IMG/VR virus record: IMGVR_UViG_3300029555_000004
Reading direction: 5' to 3' (one strand)
DNA length: 64,000 nt
Origin: a virus
In this document: piece after piece, positions 2,724 to 54,670 of the stretch
Layout: every line of letters starts with the position of its first letter
Numbering within the stretch: the stretch's first letter is position 1
Notes under the pieces: model-generated
The model's database searches: none
Seen by the model: the letters and a program-made list of their open reading frames with translations, nothing else
What the model was told of the DNA's origin: nothing
Program-made: the position numbers and the translations under genes

Positions 2724-3563
2724 TTGAAAATGAAATTAAAGTGTGAAATATATCGTGATTCTATGCAGAACTATAAAAAATACGCAATTCCAAGAGCGCA
2801 ACTCGTAATTGCTGATGTTCCATACAATGTAGGATGTAATTTCTACGGAAGTAATCCTATGTGGTACACGGGCGGAGACAACAAGAACGGCGAAAGTAAA
2901 CTTGCTGGTAAAGCAGCATTCAATTCAGATTTCAATTTCAATCTGTATGAATACTTCCATTTTTGTTCAAAAATGTTGAAGAAAGAACCAAAAAAGGCAG
3001 GTGTAAGAGGAAGAAGTTCAGACGCACCATGTATGATAGTGTTTTGTTCATTTGAACAAATTCAAACTCTGATTAATGCGGCGGCGAAACATGGATTTGT
3101 TCACTATATACCGCTTGTATTTATAAAAAACTACAGCCCACAGGTGCTTAAAGCAAATATGCGTGTGGTAGGTGCTACAGAATATGCTCTTGTATTCTAC
3201 AGAGATAAACTTCCAAAATTCAGAAATGGAGCGCAGACGGACGAAAACGGAAAGACTATTCGTGGAACCGGGAAAATGGTATTTAATTGGTTCCAATGGG
3301 AGAAGGACGGAAAAGATATTCCGAAAATTCATCCAGCGCAGAAACCAGTATCAGTTCTAAAACGACTGATTGAAATATTTACTGACCCTGGGGATGTAGT
3401 GATTGACCCTTGCTGTGGAAGTGGCAGCACATTGAGAGCCGCCATGGAACTTGGCAGAAGTGCATATGGATTTGAAATTGACAGGAACTTTTATAGCAGA
3501 GCAAAAAACGAAATGCTTGTTTTTGAAAATGATAGCCAAATGAGCATAGGAGATTTTATATAA
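2724..3563 (+). CDS. DNA methyltransferase (N6-A/N4-C type, beta motif order)
   Basis: Motif IV DVPY (IADVPYNVG) N-terminal; motif I VIDPCCGSGSTLRAA C-terminal; no adjacent restriction gene. Confidence 0.85.
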   Translation: MKMKLKCEIYRDSMQNYKKYAIPRAQLVIADVPYNVGCNFYGSNPMWYTGGDNKNGESKLAGKAAFNSDFNFNLYEYFHFCSKMLKKEPKKAGVRGRSSDAPCMIVFCSFEQIQTLINAAAKHGFVHYIPLVFIKNYSPQVLKANMRVVGATEYALVFYRDKLPKFRNGAQTDENGKTIRGTGKMVFNWFQWEKDGKDIPKIHPAQKPVSVLKRLIEIFTDPGDVVIDPCCGSGSTLRAAMELGRSAYGFEIDRNFYSRAKNEMLVFENDSQMSIGDFI

Positions 3564-7229: not shown

Positions 7230-7869
7230 GCCTATTTTATTCAATACCGATATGGTTCGGGCAATCATGGACGGAAGAAAGACATGCACACGGCGGGTGG
7301 TAAAAACCAGACGAAAAGACGCTTGTGGGTTCTACGTTACGAAAAGAACGGACGGCTCATTTACCGGGATATATGAATATGACGAAGATGAGAGAATGTT
7401 CGAAAATCAGTTGATTCCACCGTACAAGCCAGGAGACATTCTGTATGTTCGGGAAACTTGGCACAGATATACAAAGCGGGTTGGAAAAGGTGAAGGATGC
7501 CATCTGGAAGAACACTATGGATATAAGGCTAGCATTGCAAATTCTGAAGACGTAGAAGAGCCGTGGAAACCATCCATCCACATGCCGAAAGAAGCCGCAC
7601 GTATCTGGCTTAAGGTTACGGATGTTAGGGTGGAGCGGTTGCAGGATATTACAGATGATGGCGCAAAAGCCGAAGGAGCAAATTGCAAAGACGGTAAGAA
7701 TGTAGGCTGGCAGGAAAAGCAGAGAAGAACTGCAATTGAACGCTTTTCAGAGATATGGGAATCCACTGTTTCAAAAGAAAAAATTGATAGTTGTAGTTGG
7801 GCGGCGAATCCCTGGGTATGGGTAATTGAATTTGAAAGATGTGAGAAAATGCAGGAGGAACACAAATGA
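7219..7869 (+). CDS. ASCH-like domain protein
   Basis: ILFNTDMVRAIMDGRKTCTRR ... GDILYVRETW pattern. Confidence 0.45.
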   Translation: MAIKPILFNTDMVRAIMDGRKTCTRRVVKTRRKDACGFYVTKRTDGSFTGIYEYDEDERMFENQLIPPYKPGDILYVRETWHRYTKRVGKGEGCHLEEHYGYKASIANSEDVEEPWKPSIHMPKEAARIWLKVTDVRVERLQDITDDGAKAEGANCKDGKNVGWQEKQRRTAIERFSEIWESTVSKEKIDSCSWAANPWVWVIEFERCEKMQEEHK

Positions 7870-9906: not shown

Positions 9907-10413
9907 ATGGATAAACCTGTTCTGGACGCTACATGTGGTTCAAGAATGATTTGGTTCAACAAAAATAATGAATTTGCTGTTTTCGTTGATAAACGCGAAC
10001 TGGATGACGAAGCAATATGGACAAGCGGAGATGGAAAAGTAACAAGGTATTGCAACATCCATCCAGATATTATAGCAGACTTCACATGCCTCCCGTTTGA
10101 AGATAATACATTTTGCCATGTTGTGTTTGACCCACCACATCTTATCCAAGGAGGAGACAATGCCTGGATGGTAAAGAAGTACGGAAAACTCAACAAAGAT
10201 ACATGGAAACAAGTGTTACATGATGGTTTTTCGGAGTGTATGCGTGTGCTTAAACCTTACGGCACATTGATTTTTAAGTGGAATGAGACACAGATTTCTG
10301 TAAAGGACGTTATTGCAGCCATTGGGGCACGACCCTTGTACGGCAATAGATCTGGCAAACAGGGGAAAACACATTGGATGGCATTTATTAAGGTGGAGGG
10401 GAATAATGGATAA
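9907..10413 (+). CDS. SAM-dependent DNA methyltransferase (small, motif I then DPPH)
   Basis: LDATCGSR (motif I) and VVFDPPHL (motif IV). Confidence 0.7.
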   Translation: MDKPVLDATCGSRMIWFNKNNEFAVFVDKRELDDEAIWTSGDGKVTRYCNIHPDIIADFTCLPFEDNTFCHVVFDPPHLIQGGDNAWMVKKYGKLNKDTWKQVLHDGFSECMRVLKPYGTLIFKWNETQISVKDVIAAIGARPLYGNRSGKQGKTHWMAFIKVEGNNG

Positions 10414-22955: not shown

Positions 22956-23546
22956 ATGAAAATAGGTTACGTGAGGGTATCAACAATAGAGCAGAATGAA
23001 GCGAGACAGATTGAAGCAATGAAAGCAGATGGTGTTGAAAAAATTTATATGGATAAAAAATCTGGGAAAGACTTCAATCGTCCAGAGTACCAGAGAATGA
23101 TTTCAGAACTAACTAAAGACGATATACTGATAATCCATTCAATTGACCGTCTTGGAAGAAACTACAATGAAATTGTTGAACAGTGGAGATGTATCACAAA
23201 AGAAATTGGAGCCGATATTATCGTACAGGACATGCCACTTCTTAACACATGCCAGGATAAAGACTTAACAGGAACCTTAATTACAGACATTGTATTGCAG
23301 CTTTTTTCATATGTAGCCCAAAGAGAGAGAGAAAACACTCGGCAGCGTCAAAAAGAAGGTATTGAAATAGCAAAAACGCAAGGCAAATATAAAGGCCGCG
23401 CCAAAAAAGAGATAGATAAGGAACTTTTTAAAGAAACTAAACGTAGCTGGCAAAGAGGGGAAATAACAAAAGTACAATTTGCCGAGATTATGGGAGTTTC
23501 AAGAAGCACGCTATATAAACTTTTAGAGGGGGATAAAGATGATTGA
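22956..23546 (+). CDS. small serine recombinase (resolvase/invertase family)
   Basis: MKIGYVRVSTIEQN catalytic Ser, SIDRLGRN, C-terminal HTH GVSRSTLYKLL. Confidence 0.9.
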   Translation: MKIGYVRVSTIEQNEARQIEAMKADGVEKIYMDKKSGKDFNRPEYQRMISELTKDDILIIHSIDRLGRNYNEIVEQWRCITKEIGADIIVQDMPLLNTCQDKDLTGTLITDIVLQLFSYVAQRERENTRQRQKEGIEIAKTQGKYKGRAKKEIDKELFKETKRSWQRGEITKVQFAEIMGVSRSTLYKLLEGDKDD

Positions 23547-24567: not shown

Positions 24568-24929
24568 AAGATTACAATACTCGCAACAACGAAGAAAATT
24601 TCCCAGATGGGACAGTTAAGGCGCAAGACGGGAAGTTCTTTTTAATGGTGAATGGAAAATGGGAACAGGTGATTGGTTCAGAAGGCAAAAATCTTTTGCA
24701 ATCTCCTACAGATGTAGCTCCCATGATTATTAACGCGACTATAACATATGAGCCGCCAAAGCCATTTTCACCATTATCCCCATTATTGAAACGTGAGCCA
24801 CGTGTAGTTCCAAGATACAGCATATATGAGCTTGAAGAAATCGCAAAACACATTCTTTTGTATTGTAAATTTCGAAGGAGGGGATGCGAAGATGCCGATA
24901 GTGAAAATCACAAACCCCACCCCCTATGA
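24564..24929 (+). CDS. hypothetical protein
   Basis: ORF track; 4-nt overlap. Confidence 0.5.
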   Translation: MKDYNTRNNEENFPDGTVKAQDGKFFLMVNGKWEQVIGSEGKNLLQSPTDVAPMIINATITYEPPKPFSPLSPLLKREPRVVPRYSIYELEEIAKHILLYCKFRRRGCEDADSENHKPHPL

Positions 24930-25290
24930 TTGGCTCGGCACAAAATATTTCATTGATGGAAATGAAGTTCCGAGAGTAAGATCAATAAATTTTCATACCG
25001 CAGTAGATGAAATTCCAGTATTTGATTTTGAAATGATGGCTGTTCCAGACATTGAAATGGAATGCTTGGCACAAATTAGTGTCACTTCTCAATCAATTAC
25101 TGATGCAATTTTAGTTTTAAGGCACGAACTGTTACAACATGGAGAAATTTACAATGGCTTCAAATCAAGCCTAAAATCGGCTTTAGAATCCTACAATTAC
25201 TGCGGAATGCCATTTGAGCCAGAGGAAGAAATTGCAGAAAAAATTCTGGATTTCTTAATTGGGGAGGAAAAAGAAAATGAATTCACTTAA
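24892..25290 (+). CDS. hypothetical protein
   Basis: ATG 24892 after GGAGGGG. Confidence 0.5.
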   Translation: MPIVKITNPTPYDWLGTKYFIDGNEVPRVRSINFHTAVDEIPVFDFEMMAVPDIEMECLAQISVTSQSITDAILVLRHELLQHGEIYNGFKSSLKSALESYNYCGMPFEPEEEIAEKILDFLIGEEKENEFT

Positions 25291-25447
25291 TGTTGTTGGA
25301 GTTGCATTAAACCTCATGCTTTTTGTAATCGTTGCCACAGGTGTACTGGCAATGCTTGATGAAAGAAAAATTAATTGCTTGCAAGCTCTGTTTTATTTTC
25401 TAATGGAAGCCCTGTTTGTACTGAATATTTTTTTGATTACGAGGTGA
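25277..25447 (+). CDS. small hydrophobic membrane protein
   Basis: Two predicted TM stretches; GGGAGG RBS. Confidence 0.45.
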   Translation: MNSLNVVGVALNLMLFVIVATGVLAMLDERKINCLQALFYFLMEALFVLNIFLITR

Positions 25448-25666
25448 CAAATGTATTTACCAATTCCAATTGGAATTATCCCGATTGAGTTAATCGAAAG
25501 GGTTAAATTCATAAAAGCACCACTTCGACTTAATCCATGTAGGCTCGGGAAAGCCTACGAAAGCGATAAGTCGAGGCATCCAGAGTAGCGAATAACAATC
25601 TTTATAGGATAAAAGTGCTGGACTTTATATATCACACCCCTGGATTAATGGTGCGCCAGGGGGTAA

Positions 25667-25738
25667 TGGGCTATCGCCAAGTGGTAAGGCCGTGGAATTT
25701 GACTCCACAATTCGTTGGTTCAAATCCAACTAGCCCAG
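25667..25738 (+). tRNA. tRNA-Gln (anticodon UUG)
   Basis: Hand-folded cloverleaf: acceptor TGGGCTA/TAGCCCA, anticodon arm GTGGA-ATTTGAC-TCCAC, T-arm GTTGG-TTCAAAT-CCAAC; no encoded CCA. Confidence 0.9.
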
Positions 25739-25951
25739 TTTGCAGTATTTAATATGCTGTAAAGGATTTTAAGCTTTCATAAGAAACACCTATAGCCTTC
25801 TAGCCTAGATGGGGCTGATTAAAGGGACTTCAAATATCCCGGAAGGCGTATCTGAAGTATCAGGAGTATTTCAGAAAACCTTTGTTATAGTTGGTGGTTA
25901 AGAACTGTAACAGTGCCAGTTTGGTTACCAGTATTGCCAACTGGTATCTCA

Positions 25952-26024
25952 GGAAGCTTAGTTCAGCGGTAAGAGCAACGGCCTCATAAGCCGTAAGTCC
26001 TGGGTTCGAATCCCAGAGCTTCCA
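25952..26024 (+). tRNA. tRNA-Met (anticodon CAU; elongator or Ile2-type, not initiator)
   Basis: Acceptor GGAAGCT/AGCTTCC, anticodon arm ACGGC-CTCATAA-GCCGT, T-arm CTGGG-TTCGAAT-CCCAG. Confidence 0.9.
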
Positions 26025-26373
26025 TTTCTTCTAAATGCCATTCATCCGTAATATGGGTGGAAAAAACTTCCAGTTGAGCGTGTGGATCAGGTAAATTATA
26101 GGTGCGATACGGCGCAGCCTAAATGGATCTGGTTTCCAAGCTGGAATGCATCTTGGAGTTAAAGAAATCAGCGCAGCGCACGCTGATTAAAGGAGTTTTC
26201 AAAAGATGCGAACCATAAGCCATTAAAGTTGTGCATAAAAATACTCGTGGAGCATACCACGGTTATCAAAAAGCCGCCAGGGTTGCCAGTAAGCGTACCG
26301 CAAATAAAGAAAACTGGATAGTGGAAAGCATAACACGATAAACCTATTGCTAACCCGGTTTTTCCGGGTTATT

Positions 26374-26445
26374 CGGAAAGTGCAAGTAACTGGGAACGGC
26401 CTGGTCGTAGACTAGGTCTTAATGGTTCGAATCCATTCTTTCCGT
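26374..26445 (+). ncRNA. tRNA-like RNA with degenerate D-arm (anticodon-position GUA)
   Basis: Perfect acceptor CGGAAAG/CTTTCCG and T-arm AATGG-TTCGAAT-CCATT; arm CCTGG-TCGTAGA-CTAGG; no pairable D-stem. Confidence 0.4.
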
Positions 26446-26446
26446 T

Positions 26447-26555
26447 CCGTATAGTGGCGAAATATGTAGACGCTATTGTGGTAGCATAGGTTTCAACCCA
26501 CAACTTAGGTGACCTAAGTCGACAGCATGATAGGTGTAAATCCTATCCTATACGG
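26447..26555 (+). ncRNA. oversized type-II tRNA-like RNA (~108 nt)
   Basis: 8-bp acceptor CCGTATAG/CTATACGG, Leu-like D-arm TGGCGAAATATGTAGACGC, variable hairpin CTTAGG-TGA-CCTAAG, T-arm ATAGG-TGTAAAT-CCTAT; anticodon region non-canonical. Confidence 0.35.
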
Positions 26556-26588
26556 ACGTTTGGCGTGTTGAGTGATAACACACCTGAT

Positions 26589-26725
26589 TGAAAAGTGGCG
26601 GAACTATTGACGGTGATGAATCCGATACAATAGAAAGGCAGACGCAGAGGATAGTACATCATAATGGGTGAGTATGTGTCTTAGGACATGGGATGTACAT
26701 AGAAGTTCAAATCTTCTCTTTTCAA
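26589..26725 (+). ncRNA. 137-nt RNA with tRNA-like acceptor/T-arm minihelix
   Basis: Acceptor TGAAAAG/CTTTTCA 7/7, T-arm AGAAG-TTCAAAT-CTTCT, D-arm-like TGGCGGAAC...GCAGACGC split by a CTATTG/CAATAG hairpin; no 7-nt anticodon loop. Confidence 0.35.
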
Positions 26726-26948
26726 TTCTATCTACCAAGTGTAGATTGGAAATCTGACTTTAGCATAGCTATTGTTAGTTCTCGCACATAAATGAGGATT
26801 TGTTTGTGTGCGTTCGTGCAGGCATATAGACGCAACTCACTAGCGATCTTGTGCAAAAACTTTTTAGAGAGATAAGACCAATGCCCGTGAGGAGTGATAG
26901 TCGGGGATTCTAAAAAAATCATCTTGTTTAGCGTTTGAGGATGAAAAA

Positions 26949-27020
26949 AGAAACATAGCTCAGTGGTAGAGCAATGATATCCAATATCATGTGACACAGG
27001 TTCGATTCCTGTTGTTTCTA
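26949..27020 (+). tRNA. tRNA-Trp (anticodon CCA)
   Basis: Acceptor AGAAACA/TGTTTCT, D-arm GCTC-AGTGGTA-GAGC, anticodon arm ATGAT-ATCCAAT-ATCAT, T-arm ACAGG-TTCGATT-CCTGT. Confidence 0.9.
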
Positions 27021-27137
27021 TCTGGCAAATTGCCATTGCCAGAAGTTGCATTTTCCCCCTAAAGTTCCAGTGTTTCTCGTTGGGAGATTCATGCCGTTCA
27101 AGTCGGCACACTGGATTTTGAATGTGAGGTATAAGAA

Positions 27138-27503
27138 ATGAGAAAACCGATTATTTTATACATTGCACCTACTAGAAGAGATGTAGAATTGTTTTTACGT
27201 AAAACATTATTCCAAATTAAAAATGAACTTGTTCTGAAAACTAATTTTTCAACTAAAACTATTGAAACAAAAGATTACATTTTGAAAGCAATTGCTATTT
27301 CGGATTATCGCATTTCGCACGGACTTTATCCAATAAAATATTTTCTGCAAAGCGAATGTACATTTTCAATGCGAATATCATTTATTTCACCTATGTTTTT
27401 TGCTTTACAGACTATAAAAGACCATTTTTTGCCATGTACACAGGAAATTAACCAAGAACAGCTTATTAGTATTCTTAACGGAATTAATGAGGAGAAAAAA
27501 TAG
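27138..27503 (+). CDS. hypothetical protein
   Basis: ORF track; GAGG RBS. Confidence 0.5.
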   Translation: MRKPIILYIAPTRRDVELFLRKTLFQIKNELVLKTNFSTKTIETKDYILKAIAISDYRISHGLYPIKYFLQSECTFSMRISFISPMFFALQTIKDHFLPCTQEINQEQLISILNGINEEKK

Positions 27504-29817: not shown

Positions 29818-30072
29818 ATGAAAGTATATCTGGTTTACGGAGATGTCCATTTTGAACAATATGGTTCAGAATTTCATTTATTTGGAGTGTTTACTTCAAA
29901 GGAAATGGCAGAGAAAGTCAAAAATCAGAAAGAGGAAGAATTCTACCGAAAAGAAATGAAAGAAAAACCGTGTTATCGTAATATCGACAGCAGGGAAGAG
30001 GTTGAATTCGAAATAAAAGAAATGCAACTTGATAAAATTTGCGACTTATTTGTAGGAGGATATGTCGAATGA
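29818..30072 (+). CDS. hypothetical protein
   Basis: ORF track; GAGG RBS. Confidence 0.55.
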   Translation: MKVYLVYGDVHFEQYGSEFHLFGVFTSKEMAEKVKNQKEEEFYRKEMKEKPCYRNIDSREEVEFEIKEMQLDKICDLFVGGYVE

Positions 30073-30656
30073 AAAAGATACCAACATTGTTTGAGCGAGA
30101 ATTTAAAGACCATAATGTTATAAAAATCCTTCCAAAAGTGCATCCGGGTATGGAATGGGTACTTGAAGGAGAAGGGATTGCAACAGTGAAATATGATGGC
30201 GTTTGTTGTGCCGTAATTGACGGACAGTATTATAAACGATACGACTGCAAGAAAGGAAAAACACCGCCAGAAGGATTTATCCCTTGTTGTGAACCAGACA
30301 CAATTACAGGTCATTGGCCGGGATGGGTAAAGGTTGATGAGAAAAATCCGGCTGATAAGTGGTTTGTAGAAGCGTATTATGTAACTTCAATGTGGACAAA
30401 TCAAGGTTGTAAATTACCAGATGGCACATATGAAGCTGTCGGAAATCATTTTCAAGGCAATCCATATTATGACGATGATGATTCTTTAGTAAGACATGGC
30501 AACAATATCGTTGAAGTCGAGCGTACATTTTATGGAATCAAGAAATATCTTTCCGAACACGAGATAGAGGGATTAGTTTTCTGGAAGGACGGAAGCCCAC
30601 AATGCAAAATCAAACGTTCAGATTTTGGCTTTGAATGGCCCGTCAAGAAAGCGTGA
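30069..30656 (+). CDS. minimal ATP-dependent ligase-like nucleotidyltransferase (RNA/DNA ligase family)
   Basis: Motif I KYDG (ATVKYDGVCC), motif IV EGLVFW, motif V CKIKRSDF; only ~195 aa, no OB domain. Confidence 0.55.
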   Translation: MKKIPTLFEREFKDHNVIKILPKVHPGMEWVLEGEGIATVKYDGVCCAVIDGQYYKRYDCKKGKTPPEGFIPCCEPDTITGHWPGWVKVDEKNPADKWFVEAYYVTSMWTNQGCKLPDGTYEAVGNHFQGNPYYDDDDSLVRHGNNIVEVERTFYGIKKYLSEHEIEGLVFWKDGSPQCKIKRSDFGFEWPVKKA

Positions 30657-53368: not shown

Positions 53369-53500
53369 TTCGGTAAAATCAGTGGGCTAGGTTGGCCGCC
53401 GAAAAGCGTAATTCCATGATACGTCTGTCCACTGTTTTTATAAATCATGGGTCTGCGACAAGAAAGTAGTCACGCATTAACGACATGGAGGTTATCTAAT

Positions 53501-54670
53501 ATGAATTCTGAAATCAGAGAAATATCCCAAGAAGAAATAAAAGCGAGAGTAGCGTTTCTTTCATCCGCAAAATGTAATCATACACCACACAAATATATTG
53601 ATATTGCTGGTGGATTGATTGAGGGTACGCTATTATCAAGAATTTTATATTGGTTTTCTGAGGATAAAAATAAAAGAAGAAAAGTGCGCATTTTTAAAGA
53701 CGGCCATTATTGGATTGCAAAACAGAGAAAAGATTGGCAAGAAGAAATTAGAATTACAGAACGCCAATACGATAAGGCAATTAAAGAACTGAAAAATAGA
53801 GGGTTTGTTGAACTCGCAAAATATAAGTTTAATTCCATGCCTACAGTACATATTCGCCCATTGTGGGAAAATATCAATAAGGCTGTTGCTGTTTGGGAAA
53901 GTGAACTTGAAAAAGAAATTGTTTCCGAATTTCAAAATGAAGCAAACGGGAATAACGAAAAATGTAATTCCCAAGGGAATGACGAAAAATGTAATTCGGG
54001 AATTACAGAAGGAAGCACTTCTTTAACATTACCTACTAACAATGATTATCATAATAACAATGATTACTTTCAAGAGAAAACAGAACCAGACTTTATTGAT
54101 AATAAAGAAAAAAAGACTTTATCTTATACAGATAAAGATAATCAGACTTCTGCTCCTAATAATTATAATAAATTAAATATATATAATATACCTCCTAGAA
54201 CCAAGGAGCAGAAAGCCAACCGCTATAATTTTAGGAACCAATCATCTCTCTTAGATTATAAAGACGAGGATGTTGAGAAATTGGTAACCGAAATATACGA
54301 AAGCATTTACGGAGCCAAAGAGAATATTTTTGAAGACCATGACATTTGCTTATCTATATTTTTAATTAAGGAGTTTTTTAAGAAATATCAAAAGTACCGT
54401 GAAGAGAAACATCCGATGGTTACACAAAGCCAAGCTGAAAATATTCTGAAAATGATACGCAATCCAGATACAGATATGGCAAAAGATGATTTGGTAGACG
54501 ATAAAGAAGAACCACTATTCTATCTTGACATGATGGAGGAACATTTTAAGACAAAGTGGGGGAAAAGAAATGGCGGAGATTTTGATTATAGAATCATGTT
54601 ATTTTTTAAGGACACCACACAAAATATGTTATATCAAAGAGTGAAACAGAAAAGGGAGGACACATTATGA
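53501..54670 (+). CDS. putative replication-initiator-like wHTH protein
   Basis: GTLLSRILYWFSED...YWIAKQRKDWQEEIRITERQYDKAIKELKNRGFVE; internal 27-bp tandem repeat. Confidence 0.4.
   Translation: MNSEIREISQEEIKARVAFLSSAKCNHTPHKYIDIAGGLIEGTLLSRILYWFSEDKNKRRKVRIFKDGHYWIAKQRKDWQEEIRITERQYDKAIKELKNRGFVELAKYKFNSMPTVHIRPLWENINKAVAVWESELEKEIVSEFQNEANGNNEKCNSQGNDEKCNSGITEGSTSLTLPTNNDYHNNNDYFQEKTEPDFIDNKEKKTLSYTDKDNQTSAPNNYNKLNIYNIPPRTKEQKANRYNFRNQSSLLDYKDEDVEKLVTEIYESIYGAKENIFEDHDICLSIFLIKEFFKKYQKYREEKHPMVTQSQAENILKMIRNPDTDMAKDDLVDDKEEPLFYLDMMEEHFKTKWGKRNGGDFDYRIMLFFKDTTQNMLYQRVKQKREDTL
53948..53999. repeat. 27-bp tandem duplication with palindromic ends inside the rep-like gene
   Basis: GGGAATAACGAAAAATGTAATTCCC / GGGAATGACGAAAAATGTAATTCGG. 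Confidence 0.7.

Follow-up and report, generated by a model that had tools for sequence, protein, structure and literature searches.

What is encoded at positions 25448–27137 of the virus record IMGVR_UViG_3300029555_000004, where transfer RNA (tRNA) genes alternate with units that resemble tRNAs at one end, and what would a phage do with such units? Coordinates throughout are those of the window, the whole 64-kilobase (kb) stretch of this record that was analysed; the segment in question is termed the island. Four of its units, which we call X0, X1, X2 and X3, are tRNA-derived, structurally constrained RNAs. The island as a whole is very probably a tRNA operon at the 3′ end of a rightward cluster of genes, with eleven RNA modules following two small protein genes (25277–25447 and 25451–25588). 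As to function, we tentatively favour, at a probability of roughly 0.35, that X0–X3 act in trans as tRNA mimics (decoys and sponges, or ribonucleoprotein scaffolds) in a phage–host tRNA conflict. When the identity of the island and a mimic or decoy function are judged jointly, the balance tips slightly in their favour. The four units are the following.

25795–25847, + strand: X0, an armless tRNA-like unit of 53 nucleotides (nt), newly found here (alignment A3)
26374–26445, + strand: X1, a 72-nt tRNA-like unit, called by ARAGORN in mitochondrial mode only
26446–26556, + strand: X2, a 111-nt unit derived from tRNA-Leu(UAA) (alignment covariation)
26589–26725, + strand: X3, core of 137 nt, with the helix reaching 26586–26728 (alignment A1)

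The preliminary description of this DNA had reported three clean tRNAs, for Gln(UUG), Met(CAU) and Trp(CCA), and had placed beside them, at positions accurate to within 1–3 nt, three elements with tRNA-type acceptor and T-arm helices and aberrant cores. Both observations held. ARAGORN finds exactly three tRNAs in the window, all within the island, and Rfam scores them at 60–72 bits. We scanned for arms of T type, with a stem of 5 base pairs (bp) and a loop of 7 nt, whose next 7 nt can pair with sequence upstream; besides low-stringency extras, this returned six units, namely the three tRNAs and X1, X2 and X3. In each of these three X units the acceptor stem, of 7 bp, stacks directly on a T stem of 5–6 bp with a 7-nt loop, and in single-sequence folds the acceptor stem is closed and the T arm is present. 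All four units hold the coaxial acceptor/T-arm minihelix (7 + 5 bp, 12 bp in total, with a T loop), at 7 + 5 bp in X1 and X3, 7 + 4 or 5 bp in X0 and 7–9 + 6 bp in X2. The T loop reads TTCGAAT in X1, TTCAAAT in X0, TTCAAAT (or TTCGAAT across the set) in X3 and TGTAAAT in X2. None of the four has a normal anticodon arm, with its 5-bp stem, 7-nt loop and U33.

Standard tRNA finders miss or mis-call X0–X3, as they do the long tRNAs of related phages described below. ARAGORN reports the X units only with the -ps70/80 settings or in intron or mitochondrial mode. Rfam models were applied at their gathering thresholds (29 bits for the tRNA model RF00005) and in a permissive search (expectation value, E ≤ 10) of the 2.1 kb from 25200 to 27300 with 4,227 families, which beyond the three tRNAs gave no match above chance. 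In that search RF00005 matched none of X0–X3, and the island gave no match to ROOL, GOLLD, Y RNA/YrlA, transfer-messenger RNA (tmRNA) or the group I intron; the ROOL and GOLLD models were likewise without a match in the window and in 31 related loci. ARAGORN at default settings also reports no tmRNA. Two candidates raised by relaxed settings were rejected. A 'tRNA-Ile with a 309-nt intron' (26047–26445, intron mode) has a poor acceptor stem and is spurious, and a permuted tmRNA (-ps80 only, tag AKYVDAIVVA*) has a tag frame that is not conserved and is interrupted by a stop in X2 type C.

Relatives were gathered through the open reading frame (ORF) at 24826–25290, upstream of the island, which has matches on at least 229 IMG/VR stretches; 80 loci were retained, mostly ~80-kb human-gut contigs. 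Exact-pattern scans added 39 stretches with the X2 core and 54 with that of X3. Pairs changed on both sides were counted as compensatory, with shuffles as control. By this comparison the aberrant elements stand above chance: relatives keep their helices through compensatory changes. In X0, the strands GCCTTCT and GGAAGGC form an acceptor-like stem of 7 bp, accompanied by a D-like hairpin of 5 bp and a T arm; anticodon and variable arms are absent. In alignment A3, its two outer helices hold six compensatory pairs and the paired fraction of cells is 98%, which none of 500 shuffles reaches. The acceptor stem of X1 is CGGAAAG/CTTTCCG and its T arm is canonical; the D region keeps GG and has no D stem. 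Its anticodon-like loop is UCGUAGA (C33) in the window and merely 4 nt long in the commonest allele, and its T stem is preserved in relatives by an A-U to G-C swap. The X1 acceptor sequence is common to the tRNA-Thr(UGU) scaffold of relatives; versions of this body with loops of 6 nt (UUACAA, UUAAAA) and a 'Cys(ACA)' form are also seen.

X3 has the acceptor stem TGAAAAG/CTTTTCA, discriminator A and a canonical T arm. A hairpin of 30 nt inserted in the D loop separates its D-arm halves, GTGGCGGAACT and GGCAGACGC, which we take to match the Leu-type class-II D arm of Bacillus tRNA-Leu. The anticodon-arm slot is filled by a 7-bp stem closing a long tetraloop hairpin. In alignment A1 (22 distinct sequences, 39 pairs), 99% of 858 helix cells are paired and six pairs are compensatory, a result matched by 0 of 500 shuffles. 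Four of these pairs lie in the T stem (GGAAG/CUUCC, AGAAG/CUUCU, GAUGG/CCAUC) and another in the inserted hairpin, where CGG/CCG becomes CAG/CUG. One-sided changes mostly preserve wobble pairing, and sliding the partner strands as a control lowers the paired fraction to 29–52%. A 17-mer of X3 was found in 54 IMG/VR stretches.

X2 carries a class-II D arm (GTGGCGAAAT..GTAGACGC), a variable arm (CTTAGG-TGA-CCTAAG), 10–17 additional nt ahead of the T arm (10 in the window) and a non-canonical T loop, TGNAAAT across contigs. At its centre, TTGT[GGTAGCATA]GG-TTTCAAC-CCACAA, lies a 7-nt loop with U33 and A37; 9 nt interrupt the 5′ strand of the closing stem, which forms only with these bulged out. 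The central triplet varies across contigs (UAA 19, UGA 14, GAA 12, UCA 5, which is the window's allele, and UUA 1). Since UAA is the commonest on a Leu-type body, the ancestor of X2 is identified as tRNA-Leu(UAA), and, as read from the D arm (GTGGCGGAA..GTAGACGC) together with this top triplet, X2 and X3 are both of Leu ancestry. In X2, 89.5% of cells are paired and four pairs are compensatory, with such changes in the acceptor and D stems. A D-loop base also covaries with a T-loop base (C:G in 29 contigs, G:C in 12, U.U in the window), which suggests a retained elbow pair. Restriction-site avoidance was considered for the variable middle base of the X2 palindrome GTTTAAAC/TTTAAA and rejected, as TTTAAA is not depleted (33 observed vs 42 expected). 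In two deletion variants, L117 and L118, the X2 3′ end (..CCCGGCGGA) is joined to the X3 interior (CGGTGATGAA..) and the X3 5′ acceptor strand is lost; this fusion apparently arose through recombination at a common GGCGGA motif.

Most relatives show the usual order of tRNA-Gln, tRNA-Met, a second tRNA with anticodon CAU and a last tRNA, with conserved spacers between. Of the first 81 loci, 19 have X1 ahead of the second tRNA(CAU). X2 and X3, preceded by X1 or by a tRNA-Thr(UGU), take the place of that tRNA in the window and ~50 other contigs, and in many X2/X3 contigs X3 is the final element, with the terminal spacer directly after it. The island is a mosaic cassette array, in which the family swaps units as cassettes. 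Its other modules in the window are listed here.

25667–25738, + strand: tRNA-Gln(UUG); ARAGORN default, Rfam 60.1 bits, compensatory variants in relatives
25851–25875 and 25882–25913, + strand: two conserved hairpins in the spacer ahead of tRNA-Met (covariation, helices 4–6 of A3)
25952–26024, + strand: tRNA with anticodon CAU (Met; Ile2 possible); ARAGORN default, Rfam 71.5 bits
26041–26061, 26070–26144 and 26149–26208, + strand: three hairpin domains (alignment A4, 53 pairs)
26353–26371, + strand: hairpin AACCCGG-TTTTT-CCGGGTT just 5′ of X1, in nearly all relatives whatever cassette comes next
26726–26948, + strand: conserved 223-nt spacer ahead of the last tRNA, full-length in 41 relatives at an identity of at least 93%
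26949–27020, + strand: tRNA-Trp(CCA), discriminator A73, canonical fold; ARAGORN default, Rfam 65.8 bits
27021–27053, + strand: terminator-like 8-bp hairpin (27021–27043) and T-rich tail directly after the last tRNA, kept in at least 85 relatives

The spacers had also been described as structured, and covariation bears this out for two of them. Block 25795–25925 (X0 and two hairpins) is 98% paired with nine compensatory pairs, and block 26025–26210 (three hairpin domains) is 98.7% paired with 12, neither matched by any of 500 shuffles. The folding z-score is −2.6 for 26025–26373. The 60 nt before X1 (26314–26373) are kept in 86–116 of 148 loci, the hairpin stem being invariant and the loop variable. 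Spacer 26726–26948, in which variation is too low for covariation, is probably structured (folding z-score −1.9). We found no 3-nt coding periodicity in 25795–25925, 26025–26210, 26310–26373, 26726–26948 or 27021–27137, no repeats shared between spacers, and no strong or convincing promoter within the island. The hairpin at 27021–27043 is the likely end of the RNA operon.

Two features of the neighbourhood bear on function. The first lies in the window itself, 3 kb downstream of the island and just before the terminase gene.

30039–30656, + strand: ATP-dependent RNA ligase of 205 amino acids (aa), motif I KYDG; phrog_14301 'RNA ligase' (E 7e-57), weak match to Pfam RLIG1, PDB 9c6l 'RNA ligase1' (E 1.6e-10)

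The ligase is an accessory gene. No end-healing kinase or phosphatase was recognised near it, and downstream of X3 no protein partner is consistent across loci.

The second feature is found in relatives with islands of ~3–3.4 kb. These hold an extra cassette, a 114–121-nt 'long tRNA' termed Xv, followed 160–360 nt on by a gene for a 483-aa protein (for example 7558–7671 and 7916–9367 in L027; also L034, L050, L056, L119 and others). Xv scores 40–51 bits against the Rfam tRNA model and, minus a ~40-nt arm in the 5′ strand of the anticodon stem, is a perfect tRNA-Val(UAC); the split stem covaries (AUG..CC/GGCAU vs GUA..CC/GGUAC). It is present in 18 of the 19 loci that bear the protein, which has DUF2828, DUF7788 and vWA domains and the PHROG label 'RNA-binding protein'. 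An AlphaFold model of the protein (43-sequence alignment) reached a predicted local distance difference test score of 91.9, and its best full-length Foldseek matches in the PDB are all Ro60 (1yvr, 2i91, D. radiodurans Rsr 2nvo, Thermus phage phiLo Ro60 9l5y and TROVE domain 9kop), with probability 1.00 and template-modelling (TM) scores of 0.43–0.57. Sequence profiles gave no link between DUF2828 and Ro60, and the likeness was seen by structure comparison alone. In distant phages (L175–L228), genes for proteins 39–70% identical again lie in tRNA clusters, flanked by tRNA matches of 112–130 nt (41–58 bits), and several of these long tRNAs have a canonical anticodon hairpin after a 40–57-nt insertion. 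From the modelled fold and this setting, DUF2828 proteins appear Ro60-like and tRNA-associated, which provides a functional lead for a large family (6,628 cluster representatives at E ≤ 0.001). Xv and its protein may form a permuted Y-RNA/Ro system. Together, the RNA ligase gene and the Ro60-like/Xv cassette that sister phages have within this island lend indirect support to a setting of tRNA conflict.

How, then, might the island work? It would be transcribed as one precursor continuing from the upstream genes and ending at hairpin 27021–27043, a co-transcription suggested by the terminator-like hairpin after the last tRNA and by the lack of a convincing internal promoter. Ribonucleases (RNases) P and Z, or exonucleases, would cut at every acceptor/T-arm unit; cleavage at the X units is expected because all four keep the 12-bp coaxial helix and the T loop that RNases P and Z measure. 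As CCA is encoded by no unit of the island, the host CCA-adding enzyme would complete the ends. The products would be three decoding tRNAs and four stable RNAs that are tRNA-like at the 'top' and not at the anticodon end. The X units retain what processing enzymes read (acceptor on T arm, T loop and, in most, elbow), and the anticodon arm is deleted in X0, shrunken and variable in X1, interrupted by a 9-nt insertion in X2 and replaced by a long hairpin in X3. Such mimics could bind proteins that recognise the tRNA body and would be excluded from normal ribosomal use. As sponges or decoys, they could occupy host factors with affinity for the tRNA body or for the anticodon arm; alternatively, they might serve as RNA partners of repair proteins, as Y RNAs do for Ro60. 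A function beyond punctuation of the transcript is suggested because the X3 arms and the X2 elbow pair are conserved though unneeded for processing, and because the neighbourhood is rich in RNA-repair genes. Processing, stability and action in trans of X0–X3 are what we infer from these features.

Phage tRNAs counter tRNA-targeting defences (PMC10264068, PMC11464382, PMC11555353; on the conflict see also PMC7824862), and, as in the tRNAs of mycobacteriophages and of T5 (against PARIS and retron effectors), phage tRNA bodies are kept here and the anticodon arm is the part that changes. Escape tRNAs stay canonical and decode, whereas X0–X3, without a normal anticodon arm, could be only decoys or scaffolds and not replacements. 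In phage T4, the stable RNAs RNAC and RNAD (species 1 and 2), whose roles are unknown, are products of the tRNA region (PMC3014915). X2 (111 nt) and X3 (137 nt) are comparable in setting and size, as candidates of ~110–140 nt among phage tRNA genes, and like them are presumably cut out of the tRNA precursors. The differences lie in host and phage type (Bacillota and siphovirus-like here vs T4), and tRNA ancestry and an allele series are visible here. Non-decoding tRNA-like RNAs in phage tRNA clusters are a known kind; what the libraries searched do not contain is the X0–X3 families with their lesions and allele series. The T4-type RNAs have gone unexplained for 50 years, and this family offers a natural allele series that T4 never gave. 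Across hundreds of related metagenomic genomes, the slots hold true tRNAs, arm-lesioned mimics and anticodon switches, some with the Ro60-like protein and the ligase, and through these alleles the choice between decoy, scaffold and punctuation becomes a testable question. A bolder version, possible but doubtful, is that this widespread gut-phage family keeps a fast-evolving operon of engineered tRNA bodies, among them armless, arm-extended and insertion-bearing mimics and tRNAs that switch anticodon between CCA, UCA and UGA on a single scaffold, and that these would work with a hitherto unrecognised Ro60-like (DUF2828/vWA) protein family and an RLIG1-like ligase as a tRNA decoy-and-repair system against host tRNA-targeting immunity, in which X0–X3 would be the RNA-only version and the long tRNAs of ~115–130 nt a new, circularly permuted class of Y RNA.

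A number of observations weigh against a role as mimics in trans. Of 56 relatives with sufficient flanking sequence, only 20 have the RNA ligase gene near the island. The Ro60-like gene is absent from the 64-kb window (tblastn with the relatives' protein, best E 0.57), and 47 of 53 loci show no linkage of X2/X3 to it. The distribution of X2 and X3 is patchy, their ~50 contigs being a minority of the family, and they are hence dispensable. The window's X2 allele lacks the Watson–Crick pair between D loop and T loop that most alleles have, and may be decaying. The diversity of X3 (pi 0.044) is close to that of neighbouring spacers (0.055–0.066), so conservation alone is not special. That the RNAs accumulate is itself predicted from sequence, and we know of no defence nuclease target for the host of this phage.

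tRNA-shaped signals cut by RNases P and Z occur elsewhere, in MALAT1 mascRNA and in the tRNA–microRNA units of gammaherpesvirus 68. Plant mitochondrial 't-elements' do similar work, being unaminoacylated tRNA-shaped modules that recruit RNases P and Z to cut a longer transcript (PMC1920247). All of these are eukaryotic or organellar, whereas the X units are arrayed with true tRNAs in a bacteriophage. X0–X3 and the hairpin spacers might do only this. Acting in cis, they would give RNases P and Z access to the transcript and halt exonucleases, so that the tRNAs on either side are separated and matured and the upstream messenger RNA (mRNA) receives a defined 3′ end; the released pieces would be functionless. 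The four units do keep the RNase P/Z determinants and little more, the spacers are structured, and X1 and X2 abut with one nt between, like the dimeric tRNA precursors of T4. We nevertheless consider this account unlikely, as the same flanking tRNAs are matured without X1–X3 in most relatives, and punctuation has no need of the X3 D-loop hairpin and long arm, kept with compensatory or wobble changes, or of the X2 elbow pair, kept by covariation.

Fast turnover of tRNA genes could instead have left X0–X3 as decaying pseudogenes, relics of former tRNAs (Leu and others) on their way to loss. Destroyed anticodon arms, a mosaic and patchy distribution, the X2–X3 deletion fusions in L117 and L118, a window X2 without D-loop GG and elbow pair, and a diversity close to that of spacers are all what decay would leave. 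Relics would not be expected to keep 98–99% of helix cells paired across variants with 6–9 compensatory pairs, values that shuffles never reached, or to change on one side mostly where wobble pairing is preserved. Their insertions, moreover, are structured and covarying, as in the X3 D-loop hairpin (CGG/CCG to CAG/CUG). Pseudogenes are thus a decidedly unlikely explanation.

Might X2 and X3 be the RNA subunits of a Ro/Y-like particle, the protein coming from the host, a co-infecting phage or an unsampled part of the genome? Bacterial Y RNAs of the YrlA type mimic tRNA and are linked to Ro60, in phages too, and YrlA of M. smegmatis is a substrate of RNase P and the CCA-adding enzyme (PMC4201824). 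Like YrlA-type RNAs of ~100 nt, the X units have a domain that mimics the acceptor, T and D arms of tRNA. The Ro60-like DUF2828/vWA protein occurs in the same island in 19 relatives, followed by X2–X3 in 6 of the 19, and in distant phages long tRNA-like RNAs flank the same protein family. The linked RNA-repair gene is RtcB for YrlA and an ATP-dependent ligase here. The topology is permuted: an X unit ends at the acceptor stem and carries its extra helix in place of the anticodon arm, whereas YrlA ends in the Ro-binding stem. X2 and X3 also differ from YrlA in having neither an Rfam Y RNA/YrlA match nor a visible GNCGAA motif, and neither a Ro60-like gene in the window nor linkage to one; the tight protein linkage belongs to Xv, which stands beside that gene in the 18 loci mentioned above. 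Because the topology differs and the partner gene is absent, we do not file X0–X3 as Y RNAs, and we regard a Ro/Y-like particle as highly improbable.

The least probable account is that the units decode, X2 as a Leu-charged opal suppressor (UCA) and X1 as a Tyr(GUA)-like tRNA, their insertions being tolerated or spliced and the exons sealed by the phage ligase. X2 can form the loop UUUCAAC, with U33 and A37, on a 5–6-bp stem with 9 nt bulged, and UAA is the commonest allele on a Leu-type body. Leucyl-tRNA synthetase (LeuRS) does not read the anticodon. The long tRNAs of sister phages, which become a perfect tRNA-Val(UAC) once the ~40-nt insertion is set aside and whose split stem covaries, and the nearby RNA ligase gene fit as well. 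Yet Rfam and ARAGORN reject X1–X3; X2 has the T loop TGTAAAT, lacks G18–G19, carries 10 surplus nt ahead of its T arm and shows discriminator G where LeuRS requires A73, and its UGA and GAA alleles would place Leu at Ser and Phe codons; the commonest X1 allele has a 4-nt loop; TGA is a normal stop in the window, where it ends 27 ORFs and interrupts no gene; and neither a splicing endonuclease nor a bulge–helix–bulge motif was seen, the motif being checked by eye only. As for introns, there is no Intron_gpI match, the insertions measure 9–55 nt, and the covariation of the split stem in the long tRNAs fits an extra arm or an intron alike.

The true tRNAs of the island vary in their own anticodon loops. 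The last tRNA (homologues of 26949–27020 in L003–L081) has a body near-invariant in ~66 relatives, with three polymorphic anticodon-loop positions. Its loop alleles are AUUGAAU (UGA, 42 loci), ACUCAAU (UCA, 11), ACUGAAU (UGA, 7), AUCCAAU (CCA, 5 plus the window) and AUUCAAU (UCA, 1). In the commonest of these, a Ser anticodon sits on a class-I body with A73, for which charging by seryl-tRNA synthetase is not expected, and the UCA allele would decode the opal stop. Stop-codon recoding was rejected as the cause of the UCA alleles: relatives that carry them show no surplus of in-frame TGA near the island. Taking TGA as sense fused no real genes of the window. Inversion of the hairpin loop was likewise rejected as the origin of the TCA/TGA alleles, as it fits one rare allele only. 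The body of the second tRNA(CAU) is also found with CCU (L001:1336–1407, L112, L114 and L144, listed together with the tRNA-Thr(UGU) loci for arm switching), and another island unit in relatives bears the loop UUUUUA.

At its 5′ end, the island begins with protein-coding sequence.

25277–25447, + strand: small hydrophobic ORF of 56 aa from ATG (62 aa from TTG 25259), from the ORF list, with GGAGG upstream of ATG 25277; the penultimate protein gene before the RNA island
25451–25588, + strand: conserved gene for a 45-aa protein (MYLPIPIGIIPIELIERVKF...), 33 distinct homologues

The 45-aa ORF begins 5 nt past a Shine–Dalgarno sequence, GAGGTGA, which overlaps the stop of ORF 25277–25447, and the two are translationally coupled. 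Its 33 distinct homologues differ chiefly by synonymous changes (CCA/CCG, ATT/ATC, GAA/GAG, GCA/GCG, TAC/TAT, AGC/AGT); one variant has a 15-nt in-frame deletion, the TAG stop is kept and similarity collapses just past it. The preliminary description had called the island a coding desert and had singled out a 105-nt multi-stem at 25515–25620, and neither claim survives. The mRNA of the 45-aa gene can fold into nested 10-bp and 7-bp helices (CTTCGACTTA/TAAGTCGAGG and GTAGGCT/AGCCTAC), both of which lie inside the ORF. Comparison of 18 distinct sequences yields no compensatory pair and 13 broken cells for these helices, the same as shuffles; they may form in the mRNA, with no evidence of a selected RNA element. 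Of the likeness to T4 species 1 and 2 that was drawn there, what stands is the presence of embedded, conserved, structured, tRNA-derived candidates for stable RNAs; the coding desert and the showcased multi-stem fall away.

The source phage is a member of an ~80-kb siphovirus-like family of the human gut. Genes for a large serine recombinase, a replisome organiser, DNA methyltransferases, a terminase, an SPP1-type portal and an E-type capsid protein indicate a siphovirus-like and probably temperate phage. The closest cultured homologue of the portal, at only 35% identity, is in the Clostridium innocuum phage Maintenon, a match that points to a host among the Bacillota. Two exact-pattern scans of 185,579 species-representative genomes returned no prophage copy by which to identify the host, and among GenBank phages the island was found in just one unannotated 5-kb faecal scaffold, MT838485.1.

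Elsewhere in the window, a Hin/Gin-type DNA invertase (resolvase domain and HTH_7) is encoded at 22956–23546, 2 kb upstream of the island. An Rfam match to int-alpA RNA at 53380–53450 (47.7 bits, gathering threshold 35.8) ends just within the start of ORF 53447–54670, which has no Pfam match. Several palindromes are strongly depleted window-wide (observed/expected: GATC 90/225, GGCC 23/93, CGCG 18/58, CTGCAG 1/16, TGATCA 1/12, ATCGAT 1/9, GCATGC 0/5), a pattern consistent with avoidance of restriction sites. Genes for at least two DNA methyltransferases lie at 2724–3563 and 9907–10413.

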